DNA of 64,000 nucleotides from Raillietiella orientalis (lineage: Eukaryota), in assembly GCA_036172245.1 (NCBI GenBank), contig JAYWIR010000091.1:186001-250000 (forward strand), written 5' to 3'. The notes under the pieces were generated by a model. It saw only the letters and a list, made by a program, of their open reading frames with translations. It had not been told where the DNA came from and made no database searches. Of the stretch, positions 1 through 51,715 are shown piece after piece (the stretch's first letter is position 1; each line of letters opens with the position of its first letter). The position numbers were made by a program, and so were the translations under genes.

Positions 1-757
1 CCGATGTCCGAGATGATCTCGCACACCGTGAAAGGCTCGTCGAGGCTCCTTTTCTCCTCCTCCACGATCGCTGGAGCACCTTTCGGAAGCAGGAGTCGTA
101 AGATATCCCGCTCCGTAGGGGCTCTGGCGTACAGGGGGGAGTAAAATTTCCTAACTATCCCGCGCTTCTAAGCAGGATCCGAGTGCACCCGGCCCGGGTC
201 GTCCAGCAAGCTGGCCCACATGGATTGCCGAGATTGCCTCTCGGCTCCCGCTCGTTACTCCGCTAACCTGCGCATGTCGGTGGTCCTAGCGTGACAACAA
301 GTCAGCAGACAGGCTCGTTCGCTACGGACCCCGGTCCGAAAACCCGGAGGTAGGCGGTGCTGAGGGAACCGGTCACAAAACTCCTGGTCCCACCGCTTGA
401 AACGGTTTGAATCCTAAATTTTCTGCAGCCTAAAGCTCTGTATAAACGTGCGGAGATGTTTCGCCCCGTCTGAAAGCTTTAGCCAGTCCCCTGGAAGTCG
501 CCACGCTTACGAGGGAGGACCCCTGTCGCGGGGGTAAACCCCGAGGAAGATCGGGCGATGGACGGACAGCTCGCAGGGTAACTTGCCGCGCCTGCCCACG
601 CGAGGGCACACGTGCTGATCAAGGAACAAGTAGCCGATGCTGTCCTCCATCCTTGGTTCACTGGCCAACAAATTACAGGTGTGCGCAGCCATGCACACCT
701 CCTTGACCAGGTCATGCTTGTGATTCTGCCCATCTCGTTTCAGGCGAACGTTGAAAT
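1..757 (-). pseudogene. Non-LTR retrotransposon ORF2 fragment (APE C-terminus from FNVRL, linker, start of RT region), A/H-related; host of a B-related insertion
   Basis: Minus strand reads NFNVRLKRDG...NLLASEPRMEDSIGYLFLD...RDRGPPS and further on PKGAPAIVEEEKRSLDEPFT, homologous to other ORF2 copies in the window; broken by stops and frameshifts. Confidence 0.85.
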
Positions 758-1722
758 TTTTTTCCTCGTTCACGCCGGGACGTTGATTGATATAAACGAG
801 CTGGAAACAGTTGTTTCCAGCTTTCGACAATAAAAAGATGCAGCGGAGATTTACGCCTAGCACGCAGGCCAGGAAAACGGAAGAACATGGACGACTGAGG
901 GGTGTCAAAAAAAAAAAAATTGTAAACGGGAGGAGTGGGCCAGGGAACTTTGGTGACGCTCCACAGTCACAGGGAAAGTCAAATGTTTTGGCACCAAAAT
1001 CACTGCGGAGCGTAGAGGAAAAAGGACGCGAGAGGAAAAAAATCAATTGAAAATAAAATGAGGGCGGATCACCCGTTTCGTCGTTCTAAGCGGTTGCTCA
1101 TCCGGCGATGGATACCGGTTAGCTCATCCGTTGTGTCCTCCCATGAGTGTCGACACTCTGCCGCCAATCTGATGAAGTCAAGTTATTTCCTGGTGACATA
1201 ACATCGCCGTCCAGTGTTCTCGAGCACGTCTCGGATTGTGACGACGGCGCGGATGCAACCAACAGTGGAAATCATCGCAGCCATCGAAAGTCCTTGTGGC
1301 CGGAAGAACCGCCGCAGCACTTGTCTAGCGGTGCCCCCCGGTGGCGGGAGACCTTCTGCTAGCCTCCGCTACAGTTCGTGGAGGGCAGCGCCGTCCATAT
1401 CAGGGTGCGGGAACGAATCGTTCGCTTCGCACTGCGCACAGTAGAAAGAAGCCACCCCACCGGAATCCCGTTGTCGCCGCTCGTCGTAGCGCAATCCCCA
1501 GTGCAAGGAGAGCAAAACGTCTTGCTTTTATGCAGGGGGAAACATCGAACCGTACAAACACCAGGGAGGGACTATAAGTTCCTCGGGGGCAACACCAAGA
1601 GCTTCTTCCCACCGAAGTAACCCTTATGGTGTAGTACGAGGAGTGGCGGCATCCGCAATCTCGCTCGTGGCCCATTCGTTAACTGGTTTTGTTCTTCCTG
1701 CAATGATGCAGGAGGAACCTGC
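758..1722 (-). mobile_element. 3' portion of a divergent B-related non-LTR element (ORF2 C-terminus with CCHC finger, 3' UTR, terminus)
   Basis: SCIIAGRTKPVNEWATSEIADAATPR...HWG...DSGGVAS..CAQC; stop at ~1069; terminus (minus) AATCAACGTCCCGGCGTGAACGAGG-AAAAAA then host ATTTCAAC. Confidence 0.85.
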
Positions 1723-4865: not shown

Positions 4866-5431
4866 GAGATTGCAAACGGTGACGCCTCTCAGGAATTCGC
4901 GAAGTTGTTCTTTTGTACCTGAGAGTTGCCACGCTCTGGAAGGCGGACCCTTATCGCGTGGGCGCATTTCGAATATCTACCGGAAATGGTCAGACAGCTG
5001 CGACGCAACTTTCCCTCGCTTTCCGACTCGTAGGCGCAGGTCGATGTCGACGAGGACGTGATCGATGCTGCTGACCGTTTCCGGAAGATATCCTGACAAT
5101 TTGCGGGTGCGCGTGGCAGGGTACAACTCTTTAACCGTCCGCTCCTGTGCGCGAGGATTATCCGATAGCAGGCCAAGATTGAAGTCTCCCGCTATCAGCA
5201 AAGAACTGCACACGTTCGCCCCCACCAGCCAGTCGCTCTTCAGAGTTTTCAGGAACGCCTCACGATTCTGGTATCTGGCAGGACCGCTGAGAGCGTACAC
5301 GTTTGCTAAGTCGAGGTCGATCGTGTGGGACCATCTGCGAAACAGATGGCCGACTCGAGCGGCTTCGTCGAAGCGCACGCCTTTCACGTCAGCGTCGAAC
5401 GCCGGCTTCATGGAATACGCAAAAAAAACAG
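4866..5431 (-). pseudogene. APE endonuclease fragment of a C-like element; host for H' (at 4866) and D1 (at ~5432)
   Basis: ORF 4977..5519: KPAFDADVKGVRFD...NVYA...LIAGDFNLGLL...SSIDHVLVD...LSDHFR. Confidence 0.9.
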
Positions 5432-7581
5432 GTTTTTCACAAGGGTGAGCCGGGGCTTTTATTATTAAAATTTTCGCAATAACAAAAATTTCATAATAAA
5501 GTCTTATATTTTTATTCAATTGTTTTTCTTTTTAGGACATTTAGAAATTCACGGTTCCTCTGTGGCACTTGTTCTTACCGACCCGGAGGCCGATATGGTC
5601 GATCGCACTGAAGCAAAGAAAAAAAAAACAAAAATAAAAGAAAAAAAGAAAAACTCCTGGAGGACAATGTTTTTGGGGAAGCGGAGGGAGGGAACGAATC
5701 ACGGTACGCTGTGAGAAGGCCTTTGCATCCGGTCACGGATGCAGACGAGTGCTGTCAAATAGTTCTGAAGTCAACGCCAACGGCAGGCCTTCTCCAAAGA
5801 GATAGCTGCCCAGTGGATGACATTCCGACTTTTCCTATCTACCCTTGACGCGGTCCACTTGTCGAGGATCCCGCGTATGCAACAGAGCACTGCTAGCCAC
5901 CCGGAAGCTGGCAAGGCGTCCTGCGCTAGGAGGCGTTGAAATAAAGTTTTCGTGTCGCCGACCGGAATGTTCAGGAGCGACGAAAAGTCGGTCCCACATC
6001 TCCCGGAGAGCGACACACTCTAGAATCAGGTGAGGGAAGGTTTCTTGTTCCCCGCACTCTGTACACTGGGCATACACACTTTCCGATGTCCAGTGACACA
6101 GGCGTGCTCTGCTTAAAAGTGCCCAATGGAGCAGAAACAACGCCGTCCCCTGCCACTGCAGGGGAAGGGTGCCGCTGTCCCAAGACGCTGGCTGCCACTT
6201 CACCTCCTCCGGAGGTATACCGAGCAGCGCGCTTCAGCGTAAAAGTCCGTTCATCGGGACACTCGGGGTACTAGCGTCCGCTAGTTCCCTCGGCGTCCAC
6301 GCCTTCAGTGATTTTTTCCTGCCTCCGATGAGGCAGAACACTTCCCACGATGCCTGTTGGTTGCTATCCCGAACTTCCCTGAGGAAGGGCAGCACTGAAG
6401 CAAGGGGGGTGAAGGAAGCTTACAGAATTTTCCGTGGGTTGGAAACGATCTTTTGGAGTGGCTGACCAGCGTGCCTCCCTCTGCGGAGGCAGGAGAAGTC
6501 CTCATTGCTGATGCCATTGATCTTCACCCATGCGGATACGGACAACTGAAGCAGGTAGTCCAGTCCGCTGGGATGCAGGAGATCCAAGAGTTGTCTCTCA
6601 TCAGAGCAATCAAATCCCGCAGCTGATATCCGCATTGGTTCAGGCTGCGTTCGTGGACTACTAGGATTGTGGTCAATCCGAAGCAGCCGGTTGCCCTGTG
6701 AGCGAGGAGTCTTGAAGGTGCACACCAGGGTGCGATGCAATACATTGTTAAAAATGCAAGTTTTCTAAATAACATCTGTCGCTACATGAGCTCCAACGTC
6801 AGGAGACCAAGTCCACCGTCCCTGCGTGGAGCGCACAAGTCTTTGAGCCGGACGCAACGCCTCCGGTTGCCTTAGAGGGCTTTCCGTATAAGGCCCCTAG
6901 TCCGTGTCCGAATTTATTACGGAGTAGGGCACACAAAAAGTAGGGGCGAAGGAGGGGGGGCGCGAAAGCGTTTCACACGGCGTCCCGTTCCTGCAAGTAA
7001 AACTTGCCGTCCCGGAACGGACCCATCGCCAATTGCACCTTTTGGGGACAGATCAGGCTTCTGCAGAGCAGAAGTCCTCCGAGGGAACGCTAAGGTACTT
7101 GATATACCCGCCCGTATGGATCCCCAAGCGAATCCAGTCCGACCGTCCAGCCCGCGTCGAATCCGTTAATAGTAACAACGACTTCGTCCTTGTTTCCTCG
7201 ATGCCTGTCACGCGGTGCAGCAACCCGAAGAAATCCTTGAGCGCCGATGCCGGTCTCGACCAGGGAAGCAGGAGCAGAAGGTCTTCGGCATAAGCCGACA
7301 CGGCAGGCGTGCCGGGGCACGAGCTCGGAAAGGTTGCCAAAGTCTCACTGTATGCAATCAGCAAGAACTCAAAGTAGATGCTGAAGAGCAGGAGGGTGCG
7401 GCTGTCAACCTGCCTAATGCCGCGACGAACCGGCACGCCAAACACGTGGCTGCGCTGAAATTGATATTCATAAAAGCGAAGCGCCAGCAGGAGCGAAGGT
7501 AGGACAGGGAGACGGCCGGCAATCCCAAGCGTGACAGAAGCTTCAAAAGCACTTCCTGGTCGACGCAGTCGAAAGCCTACG
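5432..7581 (-). mobile_element. Family D copy 1: 3' half from RT KAFD to the 3' terminus
   Basis: KAFDCVDQEVLL, GIRQVDS, AYAEDL, CTECGEQETFPHLILEC; terminus AATAAAAGCCCCGGCTCACCCTTGTG-AAAAA; colinear with 33851-36003. Confidence 0.9.
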
Positions 7582-13329: not shown

Positions 13330-13495
13330 GCCACCCCCATGGAGGAGGGTGAACAGGGGGGTGAAGTCCCTCCTGCAGGCGCCGACCCTGAAAAGCCCGC
13401 CCCCATGGAGGAGGGCGAACAGGTAGGCGCGACTCCACCTGCGGGTGATCCGGCCGACGCGCCGGCACCGATGGAGGAGGGGGACCAGGTGCCTT
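13330..13495 (+). repeat. ~66-bp coding repeat (PMEEGEQ..., 3 copies) in family C ORF1 C-terminus
   Basis: PATPMEEGEQGG / KPAPMEEGEQVG / APAPMEEGDQV; related copies at ~44340-44495 (minus). Confidence 0.8.
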
Positions 13496-14048
13496 CAGCA
13501 CCTGACCCCCCTGCTCCACCTAGCGTCCCGCCCCAGCAGGTGGCGGACGCCGCACTGCCATCTTCCCAGGAGTAACACCTGGGCTCGCCAGTCGCCGTCG
13601 GATTCGCGCGGCCTGTTAAAATGTCAACGGGCTGCGCGACAACGGTAACAGGCGAGATACAGCCGACACCCTGCGGGAGTTCGACCTGGCCCTGTTGCAG
13701 GAGATCCACGTGATCACCGCGGCAGACGTCCAGGAGATCGAGACGATCGCGGGGGGTCGGCTGTACTGGCAACGCGGCATCCGCACCACCTGCGGGGTCG
13801 CGTTCTTCGTGAAGCCGGCCATCGACGCTGCCGTGAAGGGCGTGCGCTTCGATGGCGACGGTCGGGTCGGTCAGCTGACTCTCGGCTGGTCCGACTTGAT
13901 CGATCTGATCGTCACGAATGTGTACGCCTTAACCAATCAAAAGGGATACAGCAACCGTACCCGGCTGCTTGAATCCCTGAAGCGCGACTGGCTGGCGAAC
14001 ACGAGCGTGCGGAAAGCTCACCTGATACCGGGAGATTTCAATCGAGTG

Positions 14049-14056
14049 CGGACGTG
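14049..14056 (+). promoter_or_regulatory. CGGACGTG 5'-terminal motif (DPE-like putative internal Pol II promoter element); representative copy
   Basis: Also at 10305-10312 (+) and, on minus, ~29020 (TGGACGTG), ~33833, ~37854, ~43767, ~46146, ~55577; matches DPE consensus RGWYV. Confidence 0.65.
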
Positions 14057-14121
14057 TTTTTCTTCGCTCTCGTCTCCGTGCTTTCATCCGCTTCATCTTG
14101 GCGTCGTACATTTTGACGACG

Positions 14122-16038
14122 ATGTCGACCCAACTTGAAGCTACTGAAGTTGGAGGAACAGCATCCGGATATGCAATCGCGGAACCGACGGCCGCCTCCA
14201 CTTCGTCTTTCTCGCCAATGCAGAGGAGTTTTGCTGACGTTGCTGCCACAGCAGCCGTCAAAGGGAAACCACTCGACGAGTCGGAGTTGCGGGCATACGT
14301 AGCCCAAGGCTATAGACCTGCTCTCCGATATAAGGTGAGTGGTTTTCTTTCTGCGCGCGACGGGAATGAGTTCAACGATGAACGGACCCGTGATGACGTG
14401 CGGGAGGAGGACCCTCTCGCCATTATGCCCGTAAAAGACATGGGCTATTTCAAAGTGCGTTGCAAAGACGCTGCACTTGTGCAACGCTTGCTGCGCACAC
14501 CGTTGTCGATCCGTGGCCAGAAGGTCTTCCCGACCGCCATGGACGACTCATTTGTGGCGGAGATTTTCGACATCGTGTCGGAAATCTCCGATATTGATAT
14601 TCGGAACGCTTTGCGAAATTCGCCACGGTCCATGCGCTGTGGAGGGTGCGTAGCAACCTCAAGGACTTCCCGTCCATACACAGCGGAGTCGCTGGAGTCC
14701 CGCTTACAATGCCTGATCGCCGTCGGCTGCACAGCAAATTACAGATGAAAGACACGGTCGTTCACCTGTGGTTCGTGGGCAAAGAAAGAACGTGCGAGCA
14801 ATGCTGGAAGGAGGGGCATTGTATGGATGAATGTCTCTCTGGAAAAAGCCGTTATTGCAAACTATCCGGGCACCAATTGTAAAATTGCCCGGATCTTTTG
14901 CAAAAAAAGGCAGCCGCGGAGCTCCATCTTAAAAAACAAAGCGCGGATAAAAAGAAAAAATTTGCGAAAAACCTGGAGACCCCACGGCAGAAATTCCTCA
15001 AAAACGCGAGGCGGAATATCGCCACAAAGTAGCAGGAAACCTCGCACGCGAAGCCCTGCGCGCCCCCTCTCGCGGCAGGTAAGCCGCAAAAGAAAGAGTG
15101 CGGAGAATCCGGGGCAATGGTAAGTCTCCCAAGGCGCAATAGCTGTCCTTCCCAAGCACGCCCGGCTCTTTCAGAGTTCGAGCAACCGGCGGGGACGTCA
15201 ATGGACAACGGCGGTAAGGACACTTCCAGTACCGTTAGATCCAATCCTTCACCTCCTGCAGTGACTGAGAAGCGCAAATCGGGTAAGAAGGGTTGTGCAG
15301 TGTCGACTTCGAAAGTCGGCAAAAAAGAATCCGCGTCGCGATCCAACACCGCGAAAGCGGAGAAAAATCTCACGCTGTCGCAGTCGGAGAGCAAGCTCTC
15401 GACTGGCGCGGATGCCATGCCAACGAAGGGATTAAAAGCCCTTCCGAAAGCAGCGTCCATGACGAGCGTGTCGGAGCCATCGAAAGTGCTCCCGTTTAAA
15501 GACACGGATGGCTTGAAAGATGGCAATGGAGCAGAATCTCCATATACGGCGCCACGCGAAGTGAGGAACCGTAATGAAGTAAAGAAGACTTCAGCAAAGC
15601 TCCCTCGTGCAACTGCGCGTGAGCACGCTGAGAACGCGCGCGCCGGGAAAGCAGCCGTCACCAAAAGCGATGGAGACGTAAAAATACAACAGGACAGCTG
15701 TCAATCCAGCAGAACCTGTCACTACTTCCCGGAAGGCCGAAACTCGATCGAACATGCGTCTGTCGAATTCCGAAATGGATTCCGTCCCGATCACCGAGAC
15801 GAGGACAACTCGTTCGAAAGCGTGTGCGCGCCGATCAAAAGTAGGCAGCCAGGCAACGCGAGCCGCGAAGCCACGCGAAGTCTCCACGAAACCCGACGGG
15901 GTTAAGCCTGGCGTGGATGCATTACATGCATGCAGCACGACAGAGGACGGTGGCGAACGTCCCCTCCAGCCAGTCGTGCAGCTCGCCGTCTGCTTGCCGG
16001 ATAAAGCGAGCAAAAAGCCGCCGCCTTCCCAGCAGTAA
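14122..16038 (+). pseudogene. B1 ORF1 (gag-like, two CCHC knuckles, long low-complexity tail), frameshifted
   Basis: MSTQLEATEVGG...CEQCWKEGHCMDEC...YCKLSGHQL...PVVQLAVCLPDKASKKPPPSQQ* spread over several frames. Confidence 0.9.
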
Positions 16039-19000
16039 TGCGGGGAATGGCGTCTTCTCGTCGTCTGTCCGTAACGTGTTGAAACGTGAACGGACTACAG
16101 AACGATGAGAAGAGACGATTAGTAGCCAACGCCCTGCGCCCCTTCGACCTCGCGCTCCTGCAGGAGATTCACGTAATCTCCGACGAGCAGAGAGCCGAAA
16201 TCGAGGAGCGCGCAGGCGAAACGCTACATTGGCGGTGCGACGGCGCACACACGTGCGGCGTCGCGTTCCTCGTAAGAGGAAAAATGGCGGAAGCGGTGCG
16301 TAGTGTTCGTTTCTATGACGACGGACGGATAGGCCAGCTTGTCATAAAGTGGTCCGATTCCATCGATCTCGTCGTTACGAACGTCTACGCGCCGAGTGGA
16401 TCTCGCTACCTCGGAGAAAGAGTAGCTTTCTTTGGTGAGGTGCAGAGTTACTGGCTCAAAAACTTTGGTTTCCAAGTGGCGCACCTCGTTGCTGGGGACT
16501 TCAACGTCCGCCTGCTCTCCGACGATTGGAGCCGCCCGAAAGAGCGCGCGCTGCCCATCGAGATGTGCGCGTCCGTGCACGCCGCCAACTTGATGGTCAG
16601 CAAACCTGGAATGGAAAGATCGCTCGATCACGTTTTCCTCGATGAAAACCTGCATTCGCGTGTGGGAGGAGAGTTAGATTGTTGACTAGGCTTTCTGACC
16701 ACCACAGGTTGGAGTTTGAGATCCTTCCGCCAGGCAGGGTACCTCAGTTGCAAAACTGAAGGATGCAGGCGGATTGGCTTAGCCAACCGGTGGCTGCGGA
16801 GCATCTACGTGGATACCTCCGAGGCTTTGCCATTCAAGAACTTGCGGACTGGGACGATCTCAAAAGATCTGTCCGCGAGTTCTGCTGCCAATTCCCCTTG
16901 CACCGGCTTCCACGCGGTTTTGGAGAGGGTGTGGCCAACAGTAGAGACTTTCTGCAGGCCCGCACGTGTTCGAGACGCGCCTATGTCGGGCGTCTGGCAG
17001 AGTACAAGGCGAGGTCCGAGCACCAGGTCTGGCAGTCCGGAGCAGCATGCCTGTTGGACGACAAGGGCCAGGAATGTTCGGCCCCAGCCGAAGTACGCCG
17101 CATTGTGAGACGCTATCACTCCTCTCTGTACGCGGAATCCCCGACGAAGGATATTCTTTCTGAGATACTCCTGTCTCAGGATGCTCGTGTTGTCGGCGAA
17201 GAGGAACGCGAACGTCTCGACGAGCCCTTCACGGCGGATGAATTTTCGTGCGCAATCGTTCGGCTGAAGAGACGAAAGGCGCCAGGCGAGGATGGGCTCC
17301 CTGCAGAGTTTTATCAGTGCTTTGCAGTGGAGCTCATTCCCTTGTTGCTGAAACTCGCGACGCTGATGAGTGAATCCGGGAATGTCCCTGATTCCTCCCG
17401 CTCAGCGAAGGTGCGTCTCATGCCGAAAGGCGTAGACTTGCGTCAACTTAACAACTGGCGTCCGATCACCTTGTTGAACTCGGACCTCAAGTTGTTTTCC
17501 AAGCTGTGGGTCGAGCGGTTAGGAAGTTTCGCGGAATCTGTGGTGAGCCCGCAACAAACCTGCGCGGTTCCGGGACGATCCCTGGAGGCGAACGTCATTT
17601 TCGCGCGTACATGGATGCAGCTGCAGGAAGTTGTGGCGCAGCAAAGCCAGGCTGCTGCGAAAGTCACTGCCGCAGGCAAGAAGAACAGGCGCCGACGGCA
17701 GGAGGGAACGCCAGGTGCCTTGTCGGTGGCAGTCGATCTCCTGAAGGCGTTCGACTGCGTAAACCAGAAGCTGCTTTTGGAGCTTATGGAACGCCTTAAG
17801 TTCCCGGTGCAACTCCTGCTGTATTTGCGCGCGAGCTGGCGCCACGCGCTAACCTGCATTACTTTCAGCGGCTGCCGCGTGTATGGTATTCCCGTTCGTA
17901 GCGGCATCCGTCAGGGCGACAGCTTAAGCCCGTTGCTCTTCAGCATCTTCTTTGGGTTGGCGCTAAGAGCATACAGGCTGATGCTGTCTTACTTGCCAAG
18001 CTCCTGCCCGGGAACGCCTGCCGTGGCCGCGTACACTAATAACCTGCTTCTTCTGCTCCCCATGTCCACCCCGGCGTCCAGTGTCGAGGATTTCTTCGAC
18101 CTGATTCGTCGGGGAGCGGGCGTGAGCGTGAACAGAGAGAAGAGCGTGAACGTTCCTGTGGGTACGTCGTCGGAGGGGCACTCCGACTGCATCCGCCTGG
18201 GGATCCCTACTGGCGGGTACTTTGAGTACCTTGGCGTTCCGTTGGGCTTTCGGCGCAGCCGAAGCGTGGGCGGACTGTCTTCAGAAAGCAGAGTTGGCCA
18301 TCAGCCCGTTCTTTAACGGCAAGTTTACCTTGAAAGAACGGGCGACTATTTGGAACACCATCGTGGCCCCCCTCCTCCGTCCCCTGTTCTTTGTTTTGGA
18401 CCCCCCCTATGCGGCAAAACAGCGGGCTAAGCGCCTGCTCAGGAACGCTCACTGGGGTCCAGCGAGATCCAGGATCCGCCTTAAAGATTTCTTAGCTCCG
18501 CGTCTGGATGCTGGTTTGGGTATCTTGACAATGGAGCGAATCGGACTGCAGGTGCAGTTCCGACTGCTGGCACTGTGTGCCCAGCAATGGACATCCCCCC
18601 TGTGTGTGCAAGCCCGCATTCTCCTGCGGAGATGCGCCGGCAGCGGAGGATTTCTCTCGCTTTTGCCGGGTACTCAATACAGGAAGCGGGGTTTCGGGTT
18701 TCCATTGCGGCAGTTGACCGCACTTCTGGAAGCACACCCTTGGATGTCCTGCCGCCCAATGAACTTTGAAGCTTGGCGGCAGGAGTCTGTTGAATCCTGG
18801 GCGGCGTTCCAAGGAATACGCCCTGAAGATCTTCGCCCCCTGCGCCAATTTTTTCCACGATCCTTGGAAGAAGTACTGCAGGACGAGGTGAAGTTTTCTA
18901 CCCTTGCTGCCACGCCTCTTGCCGCAGCGCTGTCTGCCCTCAGGGCAAAAAACGACAGTTACCAACCGGCGAGGTGGGAGGTTTCCTGCACGATAGCGGG

Positions 19001-19628
19001 AAGAACCAAACTCCTTGGCACCTGGAAGACAAGTGAGTTGGCGGACGCCGCCACTCTTCGTGTTACTGCAAAGGGACTCCTCCGGTGGACAGAAGAACTT
19101 GCTGTCACCCCCGAAGAACTTGTAGTCCCTCCACAGTGTATGGACAGTTCGCTGCTCCCCCTTGCTTGGAAACAAGCCGTTCTGCTTTTCGTTCACTGGG
19201 GTTTTCAGTGCAACGAGCGTTGGCATCGTGACTCCGGGGGACTTGCGTCTGAGAATTGCGTTCGGTGCGGATCGACGGAGTCGATTCCGCACCTACTTCT
19301 GGACTGCGGTGTCCTACAAGGACTGTTGCGTAGGCTGGCAACAGCACGAATGCATCCCGTGGACACCGCAAGAGACTTGCTGCGACGATTCTTCACGCCG
19401 AGCGGGCTTTCACTAAGCGCAAGGATTGCAACCATCGGTTGCATACGCGCGATAGTTTCCGTCCGCCAGGCGTTGGTAATCAACGGACGGCACCAAGAGG
19501 TAATCAGCAAAGCATCCTTCTACATGGGAGCATCCGCTAGATGGCCTCATTTGACAGAGGAGACAAAGAGTAATCTCGCCGCAATACACCGCCGGTTGAC
19601 ACACCCTCATCAGCGGACAACCCGGTGA
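16038..19628 (+). pseudogene. B1 ORF2 (APE endonuclease - RT - CCHC), few disablements; YADD altered to YTNN
   Basis: ORFs 16086..16685, 16763..18316, 18222..19628: QEIH, NVYAP, GDFN, LDH, KAPGEDGLP, NWRPITLLNSD, DLLKAFD, QGDSLSP, CVRCGSTESIPHLLLDC. Confidence 0.95.
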
Positions 19629-19911
19629 TCATTGCTCTACCCTCCATAAACTAAATATGTATTTTCTTTTTACACCCGCATCCCCATAGGCTCCGGAACA
19701 TGTTAGGTGCTCATCGTATAAATCCCCGTGAGTACGGAGCCTAACCAAAAACCCGTTACCCTTCGCTCCAGTTTTTGATTTTTGTTTGTTTCCCCTCATT
19801 CCTCCCGCGCTGCGAGCGGTTTGTTTACCAGGCCTGCGTGCCGGTAATTTTTCTATGTTCTCTGTCGTTCTGTTGGTTAAGGACATTGTCCCTGACCAGT
19901 TTATTATTATT

Positions 19912-19941
19912 AATAAACGCCCCGGCGTGACCGGGTGATAA
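19912..19941 (+). terminator. 3'-terminal AATAAA plus CCCGG..CCGGG stem-loop; representative copy
   Basis: Recurs at the end of every 3'-intact element, in several lineages with otherwise dissimilar 3' UTRs. Confidence 0.75.
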
Positions 19942-22900
19942 ATTTCAATGTCCGCCTGCTAACAGGTGAGCCGGAAACACATGTGAACGCGATGAACGGG
20001 TTGTGCGCCACGATGCGTGAGCGCAACTTGTTCGCGTGTGAGAGAGGAATGGTCCGCAGCATCGACCACGTCTTCCTGGACGCTGACCTGTGTTCACGAG
20101 TCGGCAAACGGGGGAGGGTTGCGTCGACGTTGTCGTTCCATTCCCGGTTAATTTTCGAGATGCGGCCTCGCGACAAAGGACCGCCATCCAGGGATTGGCG
20201 TCTGCCGGGGGACTGGACGCGACTCTCAGGTGCGAAGGAAAACCTTCGCGAATACCTGAGAGGCGTCACGCTCCGGAATCTCCAGGACTGGGACCTTTTT
20301 AAAGAATCGGTCCGCGAGTTCTGTGAGAAGTTCCCCCTGGATCGCCTGCCCCCCGGATTCAACAAGGGTGCTCGCAACCATTGGGCCTATTTACAGGCTG
20401 GTAGGTACGCGAGAACCTTTAATGTTCGTCGCCTGGCCGAGTACCGCGCCGGGGCCGAACGCCAAGCCTGGCAATCCGGGTCGGCCAGCTTGCTGGACGA
20501 CCAAGGCCGGGAATGTTCGTCCCCGGCGTCGGTACGGCATCTCGTGCGGAGTTTCTATTCCTCCCTTTACGCCAGGGAGCCCCCGGATCGAAACGCCTCT
20601 CGGCGCTTGCTTCCGGATGGCGCCCCGGCAATAGGGGAGGAGGAGATGAAAAGCCTCGAGGAGCCTTTTACCACCGGCGAAATTCTCGCCGGTATCAAAA
20701 GGCTCAAGAGGCGTTAAGCTCTAGGGGAAGACGGCTTGCCCGCGGAGTTCTTTCAGAGCTTCGCGGAAGAGCTGGCACCCCTGCTGCTTAAGTTGATCAG
20801 GCTGATCCGAGACGAAGGCGATGTTCCCGCCTCGTTTCGGTCAGCCTGAGTGAGGCTCCTTTTGAAAGGGGGAGACCTCAGGGATTTAAAGAACTGGCGT
20901 CCGATCACGATCGTGAATACGGACGGCAAGTTGATAGCAGGGCTATGGGCTTCGCGTCTGGGGCAGGTGGCAGAATCGGTAATTAGCCCGGAGCAGACTA
21001 ATGCTGTTCCCGGGCGAAGTATGGATGCCAACCTCTTCTTCGCAAGCACATGGGTGCACTTGCAGGGAAGAGAAAAGAAAGGGATAGGGAAAGTCGGCAA
21101 CCCCACATTGGGGCCGCAAGCCGGGCTGGGAAGGGACCCCCGGGCGGGGAAGGGGGCCCTAGCGCTCGCAGTCGATCTCCACAAGGCGTTCGACTTTGTA
21201 GACAAGGAACTCCTCTTGGAGCTCCTGGGTCGCATGGGCTTTCCACCCTCCCTGATTTCCTACCTGCGCTCTTGCTGGCGGAATGCGATAATTACGGTCT
21301 CTTTCAGCGGTCACAAGGTGCATGACGTGCCGGTGCGGCGGGGCATTAAGCAGGGAGATAGCCTCAGCCCCCTGCTATTCAGCACCTACTTTGATTTGGT
21401 GCTGAGAGCGTACAGGGTGACTCTAGCCCCATTGCCGAGCTCGTGCCCCAGCACGCCCGCCGTTACAGCGTACGCCGACGATCTTCTGCTCTTGTTGCCA
21501 ATGTCCACCCCGGCAAAGGCGGTCGGAGACTTCTTCGATCTGCTCAGTCGCAGGAACTGACTGCAGGTTAACAAGGCGATGTCGTCGGTTGTGCCAATAG
21601 GAGCGGCGTTGGCAGGGCAGCAGGACTGGGTCCGTGATGGGATCCCCACGGCGAGGTGCTTCAAGTACCTTGGTGTGCCGTTGGGGGACTACTCCCCTGC
21701 GGAAGCGTGGTCCAGCTGCCTCCAAAAAGTCGAGACGGCGATCGGCCCGTTCCTGGAAAGCAAGTTTCACTTGCCGGAACGGGCCGCGGTTTGGAACGCC
21801 TTCGCGGCCCCCATCCTCCGCCCTTTGCTTTTTGTTTGCCCCTTCACCGTGGAATCCAAGAAGAGGACGAAGGACCTCCTCCGTATCGCCCTTTGGGGCA
21901 AGGGGAGGCCCCGAGTCTCACTGAAGGACTTGTGCGCTGCGCGTTGGGACGGCGGTCTTATCCTCCTGACGCTGGAGCGCGTGGAGAAGCAGCTGCGGTG
22001 GCGAACCCTCGCCATCGAAGCGAAGATGTGGAGCACCCCTTGGTGCACTCCGGCCCGCCTTCTGGCCAGGCATGTGTCCCGGTGCGATGGACTCGCGTCT
22101 TTTTTTTCTGAGCCGTGGCCCGAAGATGCAAAGATGCGGCCTACTGCTCGGGCGCATGGCAACATTGGCCAAGGAGAACAGCTGGATGGTTTGCTGCCCA
22201 GCCAACTCCCCCGCCTGGCTGGAGGAGAATATTGGAACGTGGGCAGTAGTTAACCAGAGAAGCCACGAGACGTGGAATCGTCTCCCATGCAGCCCCTACG
22301 CCCGCTGCACGCTGCGAAATCTCCTGGAGAGTCCAGCAAGATGCACGTGGGCAGAGACGACCTGCCTAGCTACGGCGCTGCCCTTCCTCAGGAGGCACTT
22401 CACAGCAGACGGACGCCAAGGTGGCAAGTCTCCTGCTGCATCGAGGGACGCGAAAAATTGATCAGCGGCTGGACAACAGGAGAACTAGCCGACGCCACGA
22501 CCCAGAGCGTCCAGCCGCGAGGATTATTAAGATGGGACGAGCTGCTCGCTATCCCCAGGGATGAGCTGAAGTGGCCCCCGGTGATGAAAGAATCCAGGAT
22601 CCTGCCCCTTAAGTGGCAAGAGTCGGCGTTGCTTCTGTTGCACTGGGGTCTACCCTGCAACGCGCGCCGCTTCCACTGCACGAGGGGAGCTGTGGATCCC
22701 GCGTGTGCCAGGTGCGGGGAGCGGGAGTCGCTTCCCCACCTTATTGTGGATTGTGCTGCCCTCCGACCCCTTTGGGAACGGTTTGGGACGACCCTCGGGC
22801 TACCTACAGGCAGCACACCCAGAGACGTTCTTCGGCCCCTCTTCGTGAAGGACGCACTGCAGCCAGCCGCAGCCATCGCAGCCTTGTGCTGCATCCGAGG

Positions 22901-26299: not shown

Positions 26300-29033
26300 C
26301 GCCGAATCCCCCGGGCAGACGTTGCACAGGGAACTGTTCGCAGAACTCCCGGACCGAGTCCTTAAATAGGACCCAATTTGCGAGACTCTAGAGGCTGACG
26401 CCTCGCAGGAATTCGCGTAGATGTTCTTTCGCTCCTGACAGGCGCGTCCAGTCCCCTGAAATACACCAATCCCTGGATGGGGGTCTCTTGTCGCGAGGGC
26501 GCATCTTGAATAATAACCGGGAATGTTCCGACAGCGCCGATCCAAGTGTCCCTCGTTTTCCGACCCGTGTGCACAGGTCTTCGTCGAGGAAGACGTGGTC
26601 CACGCTGCTGACCATCCCGCATATTTCTGTCAACAAGTTGCGCGCGCGCATGGCGGCGCACAACTCGTTGATCGCGTTACCCTGTGCTCCATGCTGATCT
26701 GAGAGCAGACGGTCGTTGAAATGCCTTGCTATCAGATGCGCCTTTCGCACGTCCGCGTCCACCATCCATTCGCGCTTCAAGGTTTCCAGAAAGCGTTGCG
26801 CTGCTGGTATCCCTGTTTACAGCTAGGAGCGTACACATTGGTGACGATGAGTTCGATTGAATCGAACCATCTGAGAATCAGTTGGCCGATCCGTCCGTCG
26901 TCCCCAAAGCGCACGCCCTTTACGGCCGCGTTAATGGCTGGCTTTAGAAAGAACGCGACCCCACAAGTGTTGCGGGCGCCGCATCGCCAGTACAACCGCC
27001 CTCTTGCGACCGTTTCGTTCTCCTGGGAGTCTTTTGCGGTGATCACGTGGATCTCCTGCAAAAGCACCAGGTCGAAATCTCGCAAGGTGGCGTCTGTATC
27101 TCGTCTGTTTCCGTCGTCGCGCAGCCCATTAACATTCCAACTGGCCGCGCGGATCCGACGGAGACATGCGAGTCCAGGTGTTATTCCTAAGAACCTGGCG
27201 GTGGTGCTCCCGCCACCTTTTGGGGCGGGTCGCTGGACGGGGTTGGCGTCTTGCTAACCAACTCCCCATCCTTCTTTCGTGCCGACGTCTCCGGCTGCCC
27301 GTGCGAAGGGGGTGTTGTTCGTACCTGTTGGCCCACATCCATTGGTGCGGGTGTTTCAGGTTCGGCGGTTTCAGAGGCCATTTCTGACCCCTGGTTACCC
27401 TCCTCCATTGGAGTCGCCTCCTCGTGGGCTTCCGCACGTGAGTGATGCTCGACTTGGGCTCCCACACTGCCATCCACTGGTTCTTCCACCAATGCATCCC
27501 CCTCGCGCGGAGGCGGAATGCACCTTCGGGGTTTCTGGGATTTTCGCCCCGCTTTCCTTGGTGGTGCTTCCGCAGAGAACGATGCACTTCCGGCCTCCCG
27601 GTCCGACTCACCTGCGGAAGCCTCTTTAGCCGCTGCATGCCTACGCAACCCCTTTCGCAAAAGTTTCTCGCGTTCGGCAAGCGTTGCCGCAAGCTCCTCG
27701 GCGGCCTTCTCGGAAGCTGAGTCCTTGGTTTCGGCGATTTGGTCGTCCGGCTGACCCTCTTCGCAAGCAGGGGTTGGGTTTTCGCGCGCATCCGTCGCGG
27801 CGGGAAAATCGATCGAAGCCGTATCGCCTCCGGTGGTGTCGGCGGGAACGTCAATGCGCTCCAGCGTAACCGTGCATTCTCGGAGAGTTTTTACACCCGA
27901 CACGGATTGATCTTTTGTTCCGGCCGCCGTCTTCTCTCCTTTCTTCGGTACATGCTTGTCTATTTTCTCTTTTTTGGCTTTGACTAGCTGCCAGCCCTGT
28001 TCTCCCTCTGCGGTTTCAAGAAGATTTTTCTCCGATGCCGCGCTTGGAGCTTGGGTTATTGGAAGCTTTTCTCGGCCAGTTTCACGGTTTTCCAATTTTT
28101 CGTTCCCCGCGCGTTTCCCTTGCGCCTTTTTGGCGGCCGAGGAAATTGGGGTGGGGCGTTTAGGGTACACGCAACGGACGTGTCCCTTCTCCCCGCACAA
28201 GTAGGATACGATGTTTGGACACCTCTTTCGGATGTGTCCGACCGCATCGCAGTAGCCGCTATACCGTGGCTTGCCCGCATATTAGAGGTCTACCGGTTCT
28301 CCCGCGACCTCAAGTTTGTGGAGTAGCTTCGCTTCGTTTTTTAGGGTTACGCGTGCCGCGGCGAGGCCCCCGAAGTGGCGTCCGTAGCCCTCAAAGATTG
28401 TGGGCTTCGGCCACAGCGCGTGTACGTCCCCGTACTTACTTAATTCTGCTTTTACGGCAGTGCGCGTCATGCGCTTGGATATTCCTGTCAAGTGGACCAC
28501 TACCGAGTGGTCCATTGACACCGGGAAGATCTTACGGCAGTCCATGATCAGCGGGGTATTTATAAGGCGATCGGCCAGGCTAATGGTCTTGCACACCAGC
28601 TCAACCCGCTGCGCCCCGCTGAGCACGCACAGACCTTCCAGATCTTCCTCAAGGACATTAGCATTTTGAAGCGCTCTGCTGAAAGAGCGCGCCAAGTTCC
28701 CTTTAAACAAAGGGCCTACCATGCATACAAGGGATGGCTCGTATTAAGAGGCCCGATAGGCGGCTTCCTCGGCCATGGCCTCCGCACTGGGGGCGACGAC
28801 CATTTCACTCCAAGTCTTCGCCGGCTGCGAAGACGTTTCAGGGACTATTGCCCACATAGCTGTAGGTCTTGTAGTAGGACTTGCCTTCCCCACAACTACA
28901 TCTATCGCGGTGTCCTCTGGCACGGCTGCCAACGGACACCGACGACCCACTCTTTACACCTGACTACACTGAAAACTCCGGCTGCTTCCCAGACAAGCGC
29001 TGGCGGAGCGACCAAAAAACACGTCCACTCACA
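26300..29033 (-). mobile_element. Family C copy C': 5' end, ORF1 and APE up to the GFG site
   Basis: 5' TGTGAGTGGACGTG; ORF1 PEDTA...WSEMVVAPSAEAMAE...; APE QEIH, NVYAP, VDH; ends LPGGFG. Confidence 0.9.
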
Positions 29034-37867: not shown

Positions 37868-37875
37868 ATTGAAAT

Positions 37876-40800: not shown

Positions 40801-43780
40801 GGCCCTCGCCTTGTACTCTGCGAGACGCCCGACATCCGCGCGTCTCGAAAACGTGCGGGCCTGCAGAAAGTCTCTACTGTTGGCCACACCCTCTCCAAAA
40901 CCGCGTGGAAGCCGGTGCAAGGGGAATTGGCAGCAGAACTCGCGGACAGATCTTTTGAGATCGTCCCAGTGCGCAAGTTCTTGAATGGCAAAGCCTCGGA
41001 GGTATCCACGTAGATGCTCCGCAGCCACCGGTTGGCTAAGCCAATCCGTCTGCATCCTTCAGTTTTGCAACGGAGGTACCCTGCCTGGCGGAAGGATCTC
41101 AAACTCCAACCTGTGGTGGTCAGAAAGCCTAGTCAACAATCTGCCTCTCCTCCCCACACGCGAATGCAGGTTTTCATCGAGGAAAACGTGATCGAGCGAT
41201 CTTTCCATTCCAGGTTCGCTGACCATCAAGTTGGCGGCGTGCACGGACGCGCACATCTTGATGGGCAGCGCGCGCTCCCTCGGGCGGCTCCAATCGTCGG
41301 AGAGCAGTCGGACGTTGAAGTCCCCAGCGACGAGGTGCCCCACTTGGAAACCGGAGTTGTTGAGCCAGTGGCTCTGCACCTCACCAAAGAAGGCTACTCT
41401 TTCTTGGAATTAGCGAGAGCCACTCGGCGCGTAGACGTTCGTAACGACGAGATCGATGGACTCGGACCACTTGATGACAAGCTGGCCTTTCCGTCCGTCG
41501 TCATCGAAACGAATACTACGCACCGCTTCCGCCATTTTTCCTCTTACGAGGAAGGCGAAGCCGCACGTGTGTGCGCCGTCGCACCGCCAATGTAGCGTTC
41601 CGCCTGCGCGCTCCTCGATTTCGACTCTCTGCTCATCGGAGATTACGTGAATCTCCTGCAGGAGCGCGCGGTCGAAGGGGTGCAGGGCGTTGGCTACTAA
41701 TCGCCTCTTCTCATCGTTCTGTAGTCCGTTCACGTTCCAACACGTTACGGACAGACGACGAGAAGACGGGATTCCCCGCATTACTGCTGGGAAGGTGGCG
41801 GCTTTTTGCTCGCTTTTTCCGGCGAGCAGACGGCGAGCAGCACGACTGGCTGGAGGGCACGGTCGCCACCGTCCTCTGTCGTGCTGCAAGCATGTAATGC
41901 CTCCACGCCAGGCTTAACCCCGTCATGTTTCGTGGAGACTTCGCGTGGCCTCGCGGCTAGCGTTGCCTAGCTGCCTACTTTTGATCGGCGCGCACACGCT
42001 TTCGAACGAGTTGTCCTCGTCTCGGTGATCGGAACGGCATCCATTTCGGAGTCCGACCGGCGCATGTTCGATCGGGTTTCCGCCTTCCACGAAGTAGTGA
42101 CAGGTTCTGCTGGATTGACAGCTGTCCTGTTGTCTTTTTCCGTCTCCAGAGCATCGCTTTTGGTGACGGCTGCTTTCCCGGCGAGCGCGTTTTCAGCGTG
42201 CTCACGCGCAGTTGCACGAGGGACCTTTGCTGAAGTCTTCTTTACTTCATTACGTTTCCTCACTTCGCGTGATGCCGTAAATGGAGATTGTGCTCCATTG
42301 CCATCTTTCAAGCCATCCGTGTCTTTAAACGGGAGCAGTTTCGATGGCTCCGACACGCTCGTCATGGACGCTGCCTTCGGAAGGGCTTTCAATCCCTTCG
42401 TTGGCATGACATCCGCGCTAGTCGAGAGCTTGCTCTCCGACTGCGACGGCGTGAGATTTTTTTCCGCTTTCGCGGAGTTGGATCGCGACGGGGATTTTTT
42501 TTTGCCGACTTTCAAAGTCGACACGGCACAACCCTTCTTACTCGATTTGGGCTTCTCAGCCACTGCAGGAGGTGAAGGAATGGATCTGACTGTACTGGAA
42601 GTGTCCTTACCGCCGTTTTCCATTGACGTCTTCGCCGGTTGTTCGAACTCCGAAAGAGCCGGGCGTGCTTGGGAAGGACAGCTATTGCGCCTAGGGGGAC
42701 TTACCATTGCCCCGGATTCACCGCACCCTTTCTTTTGCGGCTCCCCTGCCGCGAGAGGGGGGCGCAGGGCTTCGCGTGCGAGGTTTCCTGCTGCTTTGGG
42801 GCGACATTCCGCTTCGCGTTTTTACCGAATTTCTGCCGTGGGGTCTCCAGGTTTTTCGCAGATTTTTTCTTTTTATCCGCGCTTTGTTTTTTAAAATGTA
42901 GCTCCGCGGCTGCTTTTTTTCGCAAAAGATCCGGGCAATTTTTCAATTGGTGCCCGGATAGTTTGCAATAACGGCATTTTCCAGAGGGGCATTTATCCAA
43001 ACAATGCCCCTCCTTCCCGCATTGCTCGCACGTTCTTACTTTGCCCAGGAACCACAGGTGAACAACCGTGTCTTTCACCTGTAGTTTGGTGGGCAGCAGA
43101 CGGCGGTCAGGCATTGTAAGCCGGACTCCAGCGACTCCGCTGTGTATGGACGGGAAGTCCTTGAGGTTCGTTCGCACCAACCACAGCGCATGGACCGTGG
43201 CGAATTTCGCTAACGCGTTCAGAATATCAATATCGGAGACTTCCGACTCGAAGTCGGAAATCTCCGCCACAAATGAGTCGTCCATGGCGGTCGGGAAGAC
43301 CTTCTGTCCACGGATCGACAACGGGGTGCGCAGCAAGCGTTGCACAAGTGCAGCGTCTTTGCAACGCACCTTAAAATAGCCCATGTCTTTTACGGGAATA
43401 ATGGCGAGAAGGTCCTCCTCTTGCACGCCAACACGGGTCACTTCATCGTTAACTGATTTCCGTCGCGCGCAGAAAGAAAACCACTCACCTTATATCGGAG
43501 AGCAGGTCTATAGCTTTGGGCTACGTATGCCCGCAACTCCGACTCGTCAAGTGGTGTCCCTTTGACGGCTGCTGTGGCAGCAACGTCAGCAAAACTCCTC
43601 TCCATTGGCGAGAAAGACGAAGTGGAGTCGGCCGTAGGTTCCGCGATTGCAGATCCGGATGCTGTTCCTCCAACTTCAGTAGCTTCAAGTTGGGTCGACA
43701 TCGTCGTAAAAATGTACGACGCCAAGATGTAGCGGATGAAAGCACGGAGACGAGAGCGAAGAAAAACACGTCCGCACTCG
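37876..43780 (-). mobile_element. Family B copy 2, full length (~5.9 kb), flanked by ATTTCAAT on both sides
   Basis: ATTGAAAT at 43781-43788 and 37868-37875; ORF1 43701-41781, ORF2 41781-38189. Confidence 0.96.
38926..41055 (-). pseudogene. Longest open RT reading frame in the window (709 aa, part of B2 ORF2)
   Basis: KAPGEDGLP, NWRPITLVNSD, QGDSLSP, AYADD, KYLGV; APE upstream broken by stops, frameshift downstream. Confidence 0.95.
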
Positions 43781-49107: not shown

Positions 49108-51715
49108 CGCCGAAACCTGGAGGAAGTTGATGGAGGGGAAACTGGTCACAGAACTCTCGGACTGAGCGTTTTATTTTGTCCCAGTCAGCGAGAGTCTGCA
49201 GTTCGCAACTACGCAGGAATGCGCGCAGATGTTGGCGCGCTCCTGCGAGTCGCAACCAGTCCCCCGGCAGGCGCCACGCTTCGGAGGGTGGACCTCTGTC
49301 GCGCGGATGAATGTTGATCACTAGCCGAGGGTGATCGGACAGCTCCGACGCAATTGCTCCTCGAGTCCCCACCCGCGTACACAAGTGGTTATCGAAGAAC
49401 ACGTGGTCGATTCTGCTTCTCGCCCCGGCTTCATCGGCCAACAAGTTGCGTGTGTGCATAGCCGCACACAACTCGTTGACCAATTGTGCTCGTATGTCGG
49501 GCGCTTCCGACAGCAGGCGGACGTTGAAGTCTCCCGCTATCAGATGCGCCCGCCGCACGCCTGCTTCGGCCAGCCAGTCTCGCCGCAGGGTTTCGAAGAA
49601 CGCAGTGCATTCTGCGCGCCGGTGGCTGGTGCAGGGCGCGTACAGGTTCGTGACTACGAGGTCGATCGATTCGGGCCACTTAAGGACTAGTTGTCCGACT
49701 CGACCTTCCTCGTCGAACTGTGCACTGCGCACCGCATTGGCGACGGCCGGCTTCAGCAGGAAAGCCACTCCGCGGAAGTGGTCTCCTCAACCACGCCAAA
49801 GTAGCCTCCCTCGTGTGAGCCTCTCGATTTCCTGGACGTCCTCTGCTCTGAGGGCATGCACCTCTTGAAGAAGTGCCAGATCGAAAGGTCGCAGTGTGTC
49901 GGCCACGCTACGCCTCTTGCTCTCGCTACGCAGCCCGTTGACATTTCAACAGGCTATACGCAGCTGCCGGCAAGAGGCGATTCCACGCATCTTACTAGTG
50001 ATGGTGGTGGCGTGTGTATTGCCGCCTCCTGTTCGGGAGGCGGCTGGTCGTTGTCCATCTGCGGTGGTGGCGTTTCGGCAACGACCGGAACGTCTGCAGC
50101 CGGACTGAGGTCGATAGGAAGGACCGACCGGATGCTGTCGATGGAGGGATCCCGCGACCTCGCGGACATCGCCTCCTCGCTATCCGAGCGCATCTCCTCC
50201 TCCTCAGCCTGAGGGGGAGCGACGCGCATAGGGTTGCGCGACTTCCGGCCCGCCTTCCTCTTCGGAAGGGCGACGGTGGGAGGGTTTCTAGCTTCCGCCT
50301 TGGACCCGGAAGTTTCCGGGCCCTTAACTTCCGCCGGACGTCTGACGGCCTTCTTTGCAGCCTTAGGCGACTGCATTAAGGTGGCCGCGAGTTCCTCCGC
50401 CGCCTTCGCGAAGTTTTTCTCGTCGCTGCTGCTCGCGTGTTTGTCGCAGGATTGCTGCGGCGGTTCGGCGGCGTTCGCGACGGTTGCGGGAGTCGCGTTC
50501 GCCGATCGACGCTCGATCGACGGAACGCGCTCGATTGTAACGCGGCATTCCTTTATGGACTCGCGCGGCGAAATTTTTGGTTTGCCGACCGCGGGTTTTT
50601 TGGGAACGCTCGCGTTCTGATTTGTATTACTATTATTTTATTTGTAGAGTTTTTGTTTTTTTTGTGTTTCCTTTGTTTTTTTTTTCGACACGACTTTCCT
50701 GTTTTCCTCGTCGGCAGTTGGCTCAGAAGTCTCCTTTTGAGGCTCCTGCTCCTTGTGCACGACTTCTTCTGAGGTCGGCTGTTGGTCGCTCGTTCTTTGG
50801 TTTACTGCCTTCTTCCCCTGATTTGTCGAAGGGGCTGAAGACGTTTTCGCGGCGTTTTTCGGGCACACAGCACTAGTGTGGCCCTTCGCGCAGGAGGTTG
50901 GGCATATGGCATCCGGGCATCTCTTTTGAAGATGCCCGAATGTGTTGCACAGCCCACAGTATTTTTTCCTCCTTACGTACCAGAGGTCGACGAGGTCGTC
51001 GTTGACTTCAAGCTTGTGAGGAAGTTCTTTATTTTCGCGGAGAGTTACGCGTGCGTCCACTCGCCCACTGAATGCGCCTCGATAAGTGAAGGCGTTGGGC
51101 TTTGACCACATCGCGTATATCTCCGCGAATTTGTTGATTTCAGTGCGGATGGCTTCATCGGTCATCCGCACCGTTGTACCCCTGAGGTGGATCACCATAG
51201 AGTGATCCACCGTGTGTGGGAGGAGATTCCGCCCTTCGAACGGAACGGGCGTGCAGAGCAATTTGTGTGTGAGCGCTGCATCTTTGCAGATCAGCTCCGC
51301 GAACTGCACGCCGCTCCGAATCGAGAAGCAAAGAATCTCCTCGTCAGAGATTTCCATCCTACGGATGGCGTTTCCAAATTTCCGCGTTGTAAGCGGTGAA
51401 TAAAGATTTCCTACCTTGTAAAGGAGGGCTGGGTTGTAGCCCTCCTTTATGTAGGCCTGCACTTTGGCGGCCACGTCCGGCGGAGCCGCCGCGGCCACCT
51501 TGTTCCACGCCCTCGCCGGGATGGCGGGGGCTGATTTTCTGGTGAAGCATGACCCTACCTCCATAGGTTGGGGAGACGTGGGCCTCACGTTTCCCGTCGC
51601 AGGTACTGCGGCGTCTTTAGGCATTTCTGCCTTCCAACGGCCGCACTTCCAATCCACGCAACAACCTCTCTTGGTTCCGCTCACGGGAGCTGACCAAAAA
51701 CGCGTGCGGCACCGG
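49108..51715 (-). mobile_element. Family G: ORF1 (51624-49992) and APE up to the GFG site
   Basis: CGLCNTFGHLQKRC; APE NLYAP, GDFNVRLL, SRIDH, LSDH; ends LPPGFG; 5' end degenerate and approximate. Confidence 0.88.

Follow-up and report, generated by a model that had tools for sequence, protein, structure and literature searches.

We analysed a 64,000-nucleotide stretch of Raillietiella orientalis DNA (assembly GCA_036172245.1, contig JAYWIR010000091.1, positions 186,001 to 250,000 of the forward strand; hereafter the window, in whose numbering all positions are given), a eukaryotic nest of decayed non-LTR (long terminal repeat) retrotransposon copies inserted into one another. These long interspersed nuclear elements (LINEs), for which one copy, B, serves here as the reference, encode an APE-type (apurinic/apyrimidinic) endonuclease (EN) whose segment between the catalytic motifs GDFN and LDH is 38 or 40 residues long. 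This shortening is confirmed as real and family-wide in the window. Structure prediction suggests that it probably removes the B6-B5 hairpin, a feature described as common to LINE ENs (PMC1919474).

Spacing between the GDFN and LDH motifs

In copy B, 40 codons (16506-16625) separate the Asn of GDFN (16503-16505) from the Asp of LDH (16626-16628). All seven EN copies spanning this stretch in the window have one of two spacings: 40 residues in B and its sister copy B2 (GDFN at 41325, minus strand), and 38 in G (GDFN at 49534, minus), X5 (5189, minus), C1, the host of copy B (GDFN at 14031, resuming at 19950), and the copies at 26.8 kb and 0.7 kb. The window comprises at least four subfamilies, 33-51% identical in the EN. 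Human L1-EN has 57 residues between the equivalent N147 and D205 (alignment to chain 8uw3_A). As the distance from this Asp to the His of the SDH motif is 25 residues in the window EN, the same as in L1, all of the shortening falls between the two catalytic motifs. In the alignments, no window copy has the motif L.D.WR..(N/H)P....(F/Y)T of the relatives, and tblastn of residues 140-240 from five relatives against the window gave no match better than E 0.5. The initial annotation had counted 40 residues in B, 38 in G and similarly few in the C copies, against roughly 57 in L1, and each of these counts is borne out.

The catalytic N, E, Y, D/N, D and SDH motifs are kept in the window ENs, with equivalents of L1 N14, E43, Y115, D145, N147, D205, D229 and H230 all present in B2, G and X5 where these copies cover them. 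The earlier statement that the catalytic motifs are retained thus holds for these three copies and needs qualifying for copy B, where SDH is reached only past a 1-nt frameshift near 16670; B2 reads through.

Every EN copy in the window is broken somewhere by stops or frameshifts, leaving no intact active element, and the 64 in-frame stops across copies (27 TAA, 23 TAG and 14 TGA) are aligned to many different residues. This speaks against a functional short form and could mean that the segment is a deletion in dead copies, functionally meaningless. We give this explanation next to no credence: the 38/40 spacing is shared by 7/7 copies from at least four divergent subfamilies, the C-terminal part from the Asp to SDH has kept its L1 length, and the ratio of non-synonymous to synonymous divergence (dN/dS) lies at 0.20-0.39 in 8 of the 10 comparisons between subfamilies, with dS largely saturated (the remaining two are C1-X5, at 0.73, and B-B2, at 0.44). 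That the short EN arose by decay of one copy was rejected on the same grounds. Together, shared spacing and purifying selection indicate that the short form is ancestral and persisted through the diversification of the families as coding sequences.

Among database relatives, a phmmer search with the B EN against 1.84 billion representatives (E up to 1e-3) returned 73 matches. The only one below 1e-10 is a 106-aa N-terminal fragment, a member of the lineage, that ends before the shortened region, and most of the 73 alignments cover only query residues 1 to ~145, i.e. up to GDFN. In 40 of the remaining 72 matches the Asn and the Asp are both aligned, with a spacing of 42-68 residues, mostly 57-60 and never 40 or less. 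For a second set, a profile built from 20 relatives retrieved 2486 proteins at E up to 1e-10, and the best 120 of these 2486 Tx1-like ENs were measured: they have a spacing of 54-64 and the motif L.D.WR..NP....FT, both of which the window EN lacks. The initial annotation had considered that equally short ENs might be common in non-specific Tx1/L1 elements; none of the 160 L1/Tx1-like relatives (40 phmmer matches and the best 120 of 2486) has a spacing of 40 or less. No longer protein related to the B EN was present among 1044 candidates, none of the 596 patterns retrieved from metagenomes with the C-terminal EN alignment is related, and a look-up in the ESM Atlas gave generic Exo_endo_phos clusters only.

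Predicted structure and placement of the loss

We modelled the EN of copy B2 with AlphaFold, its TAA stop being read as X and the MAFFT alignment given as input (mean pLDDT 90.2), and used as a control a model of the canonical relative P0078, built on the same sequence set (mean pLDDT 92.8). The numbering of P0078 equals that of L1 from T192 to D205, the GDFN Asn being N146 versus N147 in L1. The best Foldseek match of the B2 model is 1vyb_B (E 5.6e-17), and VIA gives Z 25.6 against L1-EN, with a root mean square deviation of 2.3 for 210 residues aligned over chain residues 6-238. VIA Z scores of 23.5-25.7 to L1-EN, ExoIII homologues and APE1 are those of a four-layer alpha/beta sandwich of the EEP fold.

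In canonical order, this part of the EN consists of a helix, strand B4, the short helix B2, strand B6, the hairpin and strand B5. DSSP assigns to the P0078 control a helix (163-174), a strand (177-179), a helix (180-184), bridges at 193-194 and 201-202 that form the hairpin, and a strand (205-210). In the B2 model, GDFN (146-149) and a loop are followed by a helix (160-175), a strand (178-180), a loop (181-189) and a strand (190-195), so that no strand pair is present between the helix and B5. From B4 to B5 there are 9 residues versus 25 in the control (16 fewer), and the loop after the GDFN Asn has 10 residues versus 16 (6 fewer), whereas the helix has 16 versus 12 (4 more). The net loss is 18 residues (40 versus 58), in line with the ~18 first estimated. 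The replacement loop reads SEPGMERSL in B2 and SKPGMERSL in B.

The MAFFT alignment sets NLMVSEP of the window copies opposite the L.D.WR strand of the relatives, followed by a 16-column gap over ..NP....FT.... up to GME-RSLD, with a further, smaller gap in the loop after GDFN. The conserved Thr at L1 T192, whose column has 112 Thr and 8 Ser among the best 120 of 2486 relatives and hardly varies in A5, is unmatched in the window copies, all of which have a gap there. From models and alignment we therefore consider it likely that a short loop has taken the place of three elements, namely helix B2, edge strand B6 (which carries the conserved Thr) and the hairpin, in a fold that otherwise resembles L1-EN. 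The view of the initial annotation that the D.(W/Y)R..HP segment and the hairpin are not recognisable agrees with this placement, as the motif is missing from all window copies and both the MAFFT gap and the DSSP assignment put the loss on the segment that bears helix B2, strand B6 and the B6-B5 hairpin in L1, Tx1L, TRAS1 and R1Bm.

Several points weigh against this placement, and some of them favour another, in which the hairpin is kept in reduced form, the LMV strand, the Pro-Gly loop and B5 still probing the minor groove, and the loss took B4, helix B2 and some of the helix and first loop. Comparing the family with the relatives' profiles, hhalign distributes the deficit over three gaps (6+6+7) and places SKPGMERSLD opposite the distal half of the hairpin; sequence-only alignments disagree on the exact position of the gap. 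The 9-residue loop has a Pro-Gly turn and the same length as the segment separating T192 from S202 in L1; anchored on B4, it might still reach the groove, and its pLDDT is only ~75. A loss of B4 and B2 with the FT strand kept has a parallel in P0012, a Tx1-like EN among the database relatives (326 aa), which has 42 residues from GDFN to RID and lacks the L.D.WR..NP segment but keeps FT...SRID; its short form may be a different natural loss or a gene-model artefact. Strand pairing was deduced from DSSP strings rather than coordinates, so that it and the direction of the 9-residue loop are provisional, and the model was built on a MAFFT alignment that was already gapped, so these two lines of evidence are not independent. 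The best-120 set was selected by score against a canonical profile, which disfavours short forms, and the relatives surveyed are L1/Tx1-like, the R1, Jockey, CR1, RTE and I clades lying outside the survey. Finally, the EN of R1Bm is also short overall (residues 5-219) and yet has the hairpin (PMC1919474).

We nevertheless judge a reduced hairpin to be improbable. DSSP finds no ladder in 181-189 and a single strand between the helix and B5, and this lone strand trails the helix by the same 2 residues as B4 does in the control. Moreover, a sheet missing the interior strand B4 would be discontinuous, so that the remaining strand must occupy the B4 position. The T192 column, Thr or Ser in 120/120 of the best-scoring relatives, is empty in the window copies, and even hhalign leaves the FT strand in a gap. 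Replacement of helix B2, B6 and the hairpin by a loop is thus the placement that we retain below.

Nicking, target choice and the insertion site

Given that the deletion is common to subfamilies under purifying selection and that copy B has an 8-bp target-site duplication (TSD), we infer that the hairpin-less EN still nicks. Catalysis would be canonical, judging from the kept N/E/Y/D/N/D/D-H residues and the L1-EN-like fold. A rival explanation is that the EN is catalytically weak or inactive, insertion taking place at nicks or flaps from other sources, such as the EN of another LINE or replication/repair intermediates. It draws on the engineered L1-EN variant L3G, in which deletion of the hairpin abolished significant nicking and impaired retrotransposition (PMC1950540). 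We find it very unlikely, as purifying selection on the catalytic residues across families would be unexpected for a useless domain, and the precise 8-bp TSD at the same sequence, like the tandem junction described below, fits two staggered EN nicks; tblastn, run on the window only, found no canonical EN there.

In the mechanism that we propose for a nicking, hairpin-less EN, an ancestral natural deletion would have removed helix B2, edge strand B6 (with the Thr corresponding to L1 T192) and the B6-B5 hairpin, leaving a 7-9 residue loop that joins B4 directly to B5, and the loop after GDFN carrying the equivalent of L1 R155 would also have been trimmed. The grip on DNA just 3' of the nick would be reduced. 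In L1, the hairpin puts P197/H198 into the minor groove and, with loop 117-120, forms a cleft holding the cut strand (PMC8565326), and swapping its sequence changes specificity little (PMC1950540). Its role is mainly in activity and in probing DNA shape, less in base read-out (PMC1950540, PMC8565326), hence its loss alone requires no new targeting determinant such as the initial annotation had suggested.

Target choice might, by a weaker argument, reside on other surfaces, one candidate being the longer loop after the catalytic Tyr. The Tyr-to-FF spacing is 13 in 4/4 window subfamilies; in relatives it is 10 in 46/70 and at least 13 in 6/70, and a spacing of 13 occurs in 1/120 of the best 120 of 2486 Tx1-like ENs. 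The loop stands at the position of R1Bm Y98 and L1 N118, and the candidacy is by analogy with R1Bm, whose cleavage pattern is affected by Y98 in the corresponding loop (PMC1919474). Other candidates lie outside the EN: the 3' end of the RNA might pair with the nicked target, or the C-terminal domain of ORF2 (open reading frame 2) might be involved. It is conceivable, though we rate it as rather doubtful, that a minimal APE EN without the whole 3'-grip apparatus (hairpin, B6, Thr anchor and R155-type loop) cuts one defined sequence, the choice having moved to the post-Tyr loop or outside the EN, e.g. to pairing between element RNA and target. If true, this would explain how sister families each acquired their own target inside one another's genes.

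The duplication ATTTCAAT flanking copy B lies inside the GDFN codons of the host EN. At a second locus, these 8 bp recur after B2 and lead directly into the 5' end of a third copy, B3; the tandem B2-TSD-B3 suggests that one target was used again. All three copies (B, B2 and B3) adjoin ATTTCAAT, within or beside GDFN codons. However, 13033-19949 and 44793-37868 (inverted) form one contiguous 6929-bp match at 92.8% identity that includes ~1 Kbp of host flank and the whole of B. B and B2 may thus be one insertion duplicated by segmental duplication rather than two, which detracts from a recurrent choice of site: as the host flank is shared at the same identity, the window holds at most two independent insertion events. 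Evidence for site specificity in the window is therefore thin, only the B2-TSD-B3 junction pointing to a second insertion at the same site. Note that the GDFN codons of B itself (16494-16505; 41314-41325 in B2) read GGGGACTTCAAC and the occupied host site (14031-14042) reads GGAGATTTCAAT; as they differ at synonymous third positions, B's own gene is without the exact target and carries the synonymous variant GACTTCAAC.

Structural studies treat the B6-B5 hairpin as a hallmark of LINE ENs and describe it as needed for nicking and as a means of re-engineering target choice. A natural lineage without it, under selection and leaving precise TSDs, would show that it is dispensable on an L1-type scaffold and would offer a compact enzyme for asking what else sets cleavage specificity, a question relevant to Tx1, R1 and TRAS-type elements and to targeted-integration tools. 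Should the loop simply stand in for the hairpin, the window EN would be a modest structural variant.

Element identity and comparison with known LINE endonucleases

The elements of the window are L1/Tx1-superfamily LINEs, as judged by their reverse transcriptase (RT): among solved chains (PDB), the best match of the RT ORF is human L1 ORF2p, at E 4e-37, versus E 1.9e-11 for R2 proteins. The profile of EN relatives matches L1 ORF2p at E 3.6e-67 among PDB chains, and the ENs of copies B and G score 40.1 and 30.7 bits against Pfam PF03372 (EEP; cut-off 24.5). In copy B, the EN ORF is followed by the RT ORF (RVT_1) and then by a C-terminal ORF. A place in the Tx1 clade is hinted at, indirectly, by the name YTX2-like of the relative P0184 and by a weak zf-RVT match in the C-terminal ORF (E 0.057, below cut-off). 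A search with the RT ORF gave only 8 matches, one at 56% identity and the others at 27% or less. Upstream of the EN, a CCHC-type zinc knuckle (CWKEGHCMDEC) is encoded at 14598-14882 (plus strand), probably in ORF1 of copy B; a Pfam scan of two ORFs of the ORF1 region (14026-14748 and 15033-15905) gave no match. The nest has a G+C content of 52-63%, with an abrupt fall from ~57% to 40% at its edge, ~56,000.

TGA occupies several Trp positions. Immediately before NVNGL, the Trp codon is TGA in copies B and G and TGG in B2, and an in-frame TGA between EN and RT is common to B (16757-16759) and B2 (about 41059-41061, minus), where copy G has Trp (TGG). Recoding of TGA as Trp was nevertheless rejected, since stops of all three kinds, 64 in number, fall on many residues, as expected from ordinary decay. 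The coordinates of the features are collected in Table 1.

Table 1. Positions of endonuclease segments, element copies and insertion sites in the window
Feature	Position	Strand	Remarks
LINE copy B	14043..19941	+	flanked by 8-bp duplication ATTTCAAT (14035-14042, 19942-19949)
EN ORF of copy B, 200 aa	16083..16685	+	Pfam Exo_endo_phos E 4.3e-10; domain continues in +2 frame to SDH 16694-16702
Loop after catalytic Tyr (YAPSGSRYLGERVAFF), candidate alternative DNA-reading surface	16386..16433	+	3 residues longer than mode of relatives
GDFN catalytic motif of copy B (L1 D145/N147)	16494..16505	+	alignments to relatives and L1
Loop after GDFN, 10 aa	16506..16535	+	DSSP of models; D-R of relatives (L1 D154/R155) not conserved across window families
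Predicted helix, 16 aa	16536..16583	+	model residues 160-175; coordinates via B2/B offset of 8 residues
Lone 3-residue strand LMV, placed as B4 of L1-type ENs	16590..16598	+	predicted strand 178-180 vs 177-179 in control
9-residue loop where helix B2, strand B6 and B6-B5 hairpin would stand	16599..16625	+	models and MAFFT; mean pLDDT ~75
LDH motif and strand B5 of copy B (D = L1 D205)	16623..16643	+	model strand 190-195; alignment
EN of sister copy B2	41074..41760	-	single frame with one TAA stop; sequence used for modelling
EN of copy G	49343..49966	-	38-aa spacing; two in-frame TGA stops
EN of copy X5, 5'-truncated	4980..5450	-	38-aa spacing
Host EN C1, 5' part	13620..14042	+	broken by copy B at GDFN codons
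Host EN C1, 3' part after copy B	19950..20129	+	38-aa spacing
EN copy at 26.8 kb	26559..27136	-	GDFN decayed to RHFN, frameshifted; 38-aa spacing
EN copy at 0.7 kb, 3' part	573..758	-	38-aa spacing; catalytic D mutated to G
ATTTCAAT/tandem-junction sites	14035-14042, 19942-19949, 37868-37875, 43780-43800		

Among compact, sequence-specific APE-type ENs, those of R1Bm (PDB 2ei9) and TRAS1 (PDB 1wdu) were compared with the window EN through papers, neither chain being among the PDB matches listed. Both keep the hairpin (residues 176-183 in R1Bm), and its mutation or deletion changes the cleavage pattern (PMC1919474). In sequence, the N-terminal two thirds of the window EN come closest to Tx1-clade ENs (Tx1L of Xenopus and the YTX2-like P0184), Tx1L having a hairpin loop of 11 residues (PMC1950540). 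As in the Tx1 clade, insertion in the window looks site-specific: the TSD is short, and the 3' end of copy B shows no poly(A) tail.

In the open-access literature searched, no natural hairpin-less LINE EN is described. The nearest case is that of plant RTE-clade ENs, in which a natural shortening of the hairpin is discussed as affecting the cleavage signature (PMC6007223); unlike in the window EN, it amounts to only 2 residues, and hairpin and B6 remain (PMC6007223).

The best structural match of the window EN is human L1-EN (PDB 1vyb, 7n8s, 8sp7), which has the same catalytic residues and the same 25-residue distance from Asp to SDH. The 57 residues between N147 and D205 of L1-EN comprise helix B2, strand B6 (T192) and a hairpin (193-202) that reaches into the minor groove (PMC8565326), whereas the 38-40 residues of the window EN form no such arm in the model. 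The closest parallel on an L1-type scaffold is offered by the L3G and LR1 variants of L1-EN (PDB 2v0s; VIA Z 25.5 for LR1), in which the hairpin is removed or shortened, as it would be in the window EN. These are laboratory constructs that keep B6 and have lost activity (PMC1950540). In the window EN, the loss is natural, appears larger, extending to B6 and helix B2, is found in several families and is apparently compatible with transposition. By predicted fold and catalytic set, the window EN would thus be an L1/Tx1-type APE endonuclease lacking both the hairpin and the Thr anchor, which are regarded as typical of LINE ENs.

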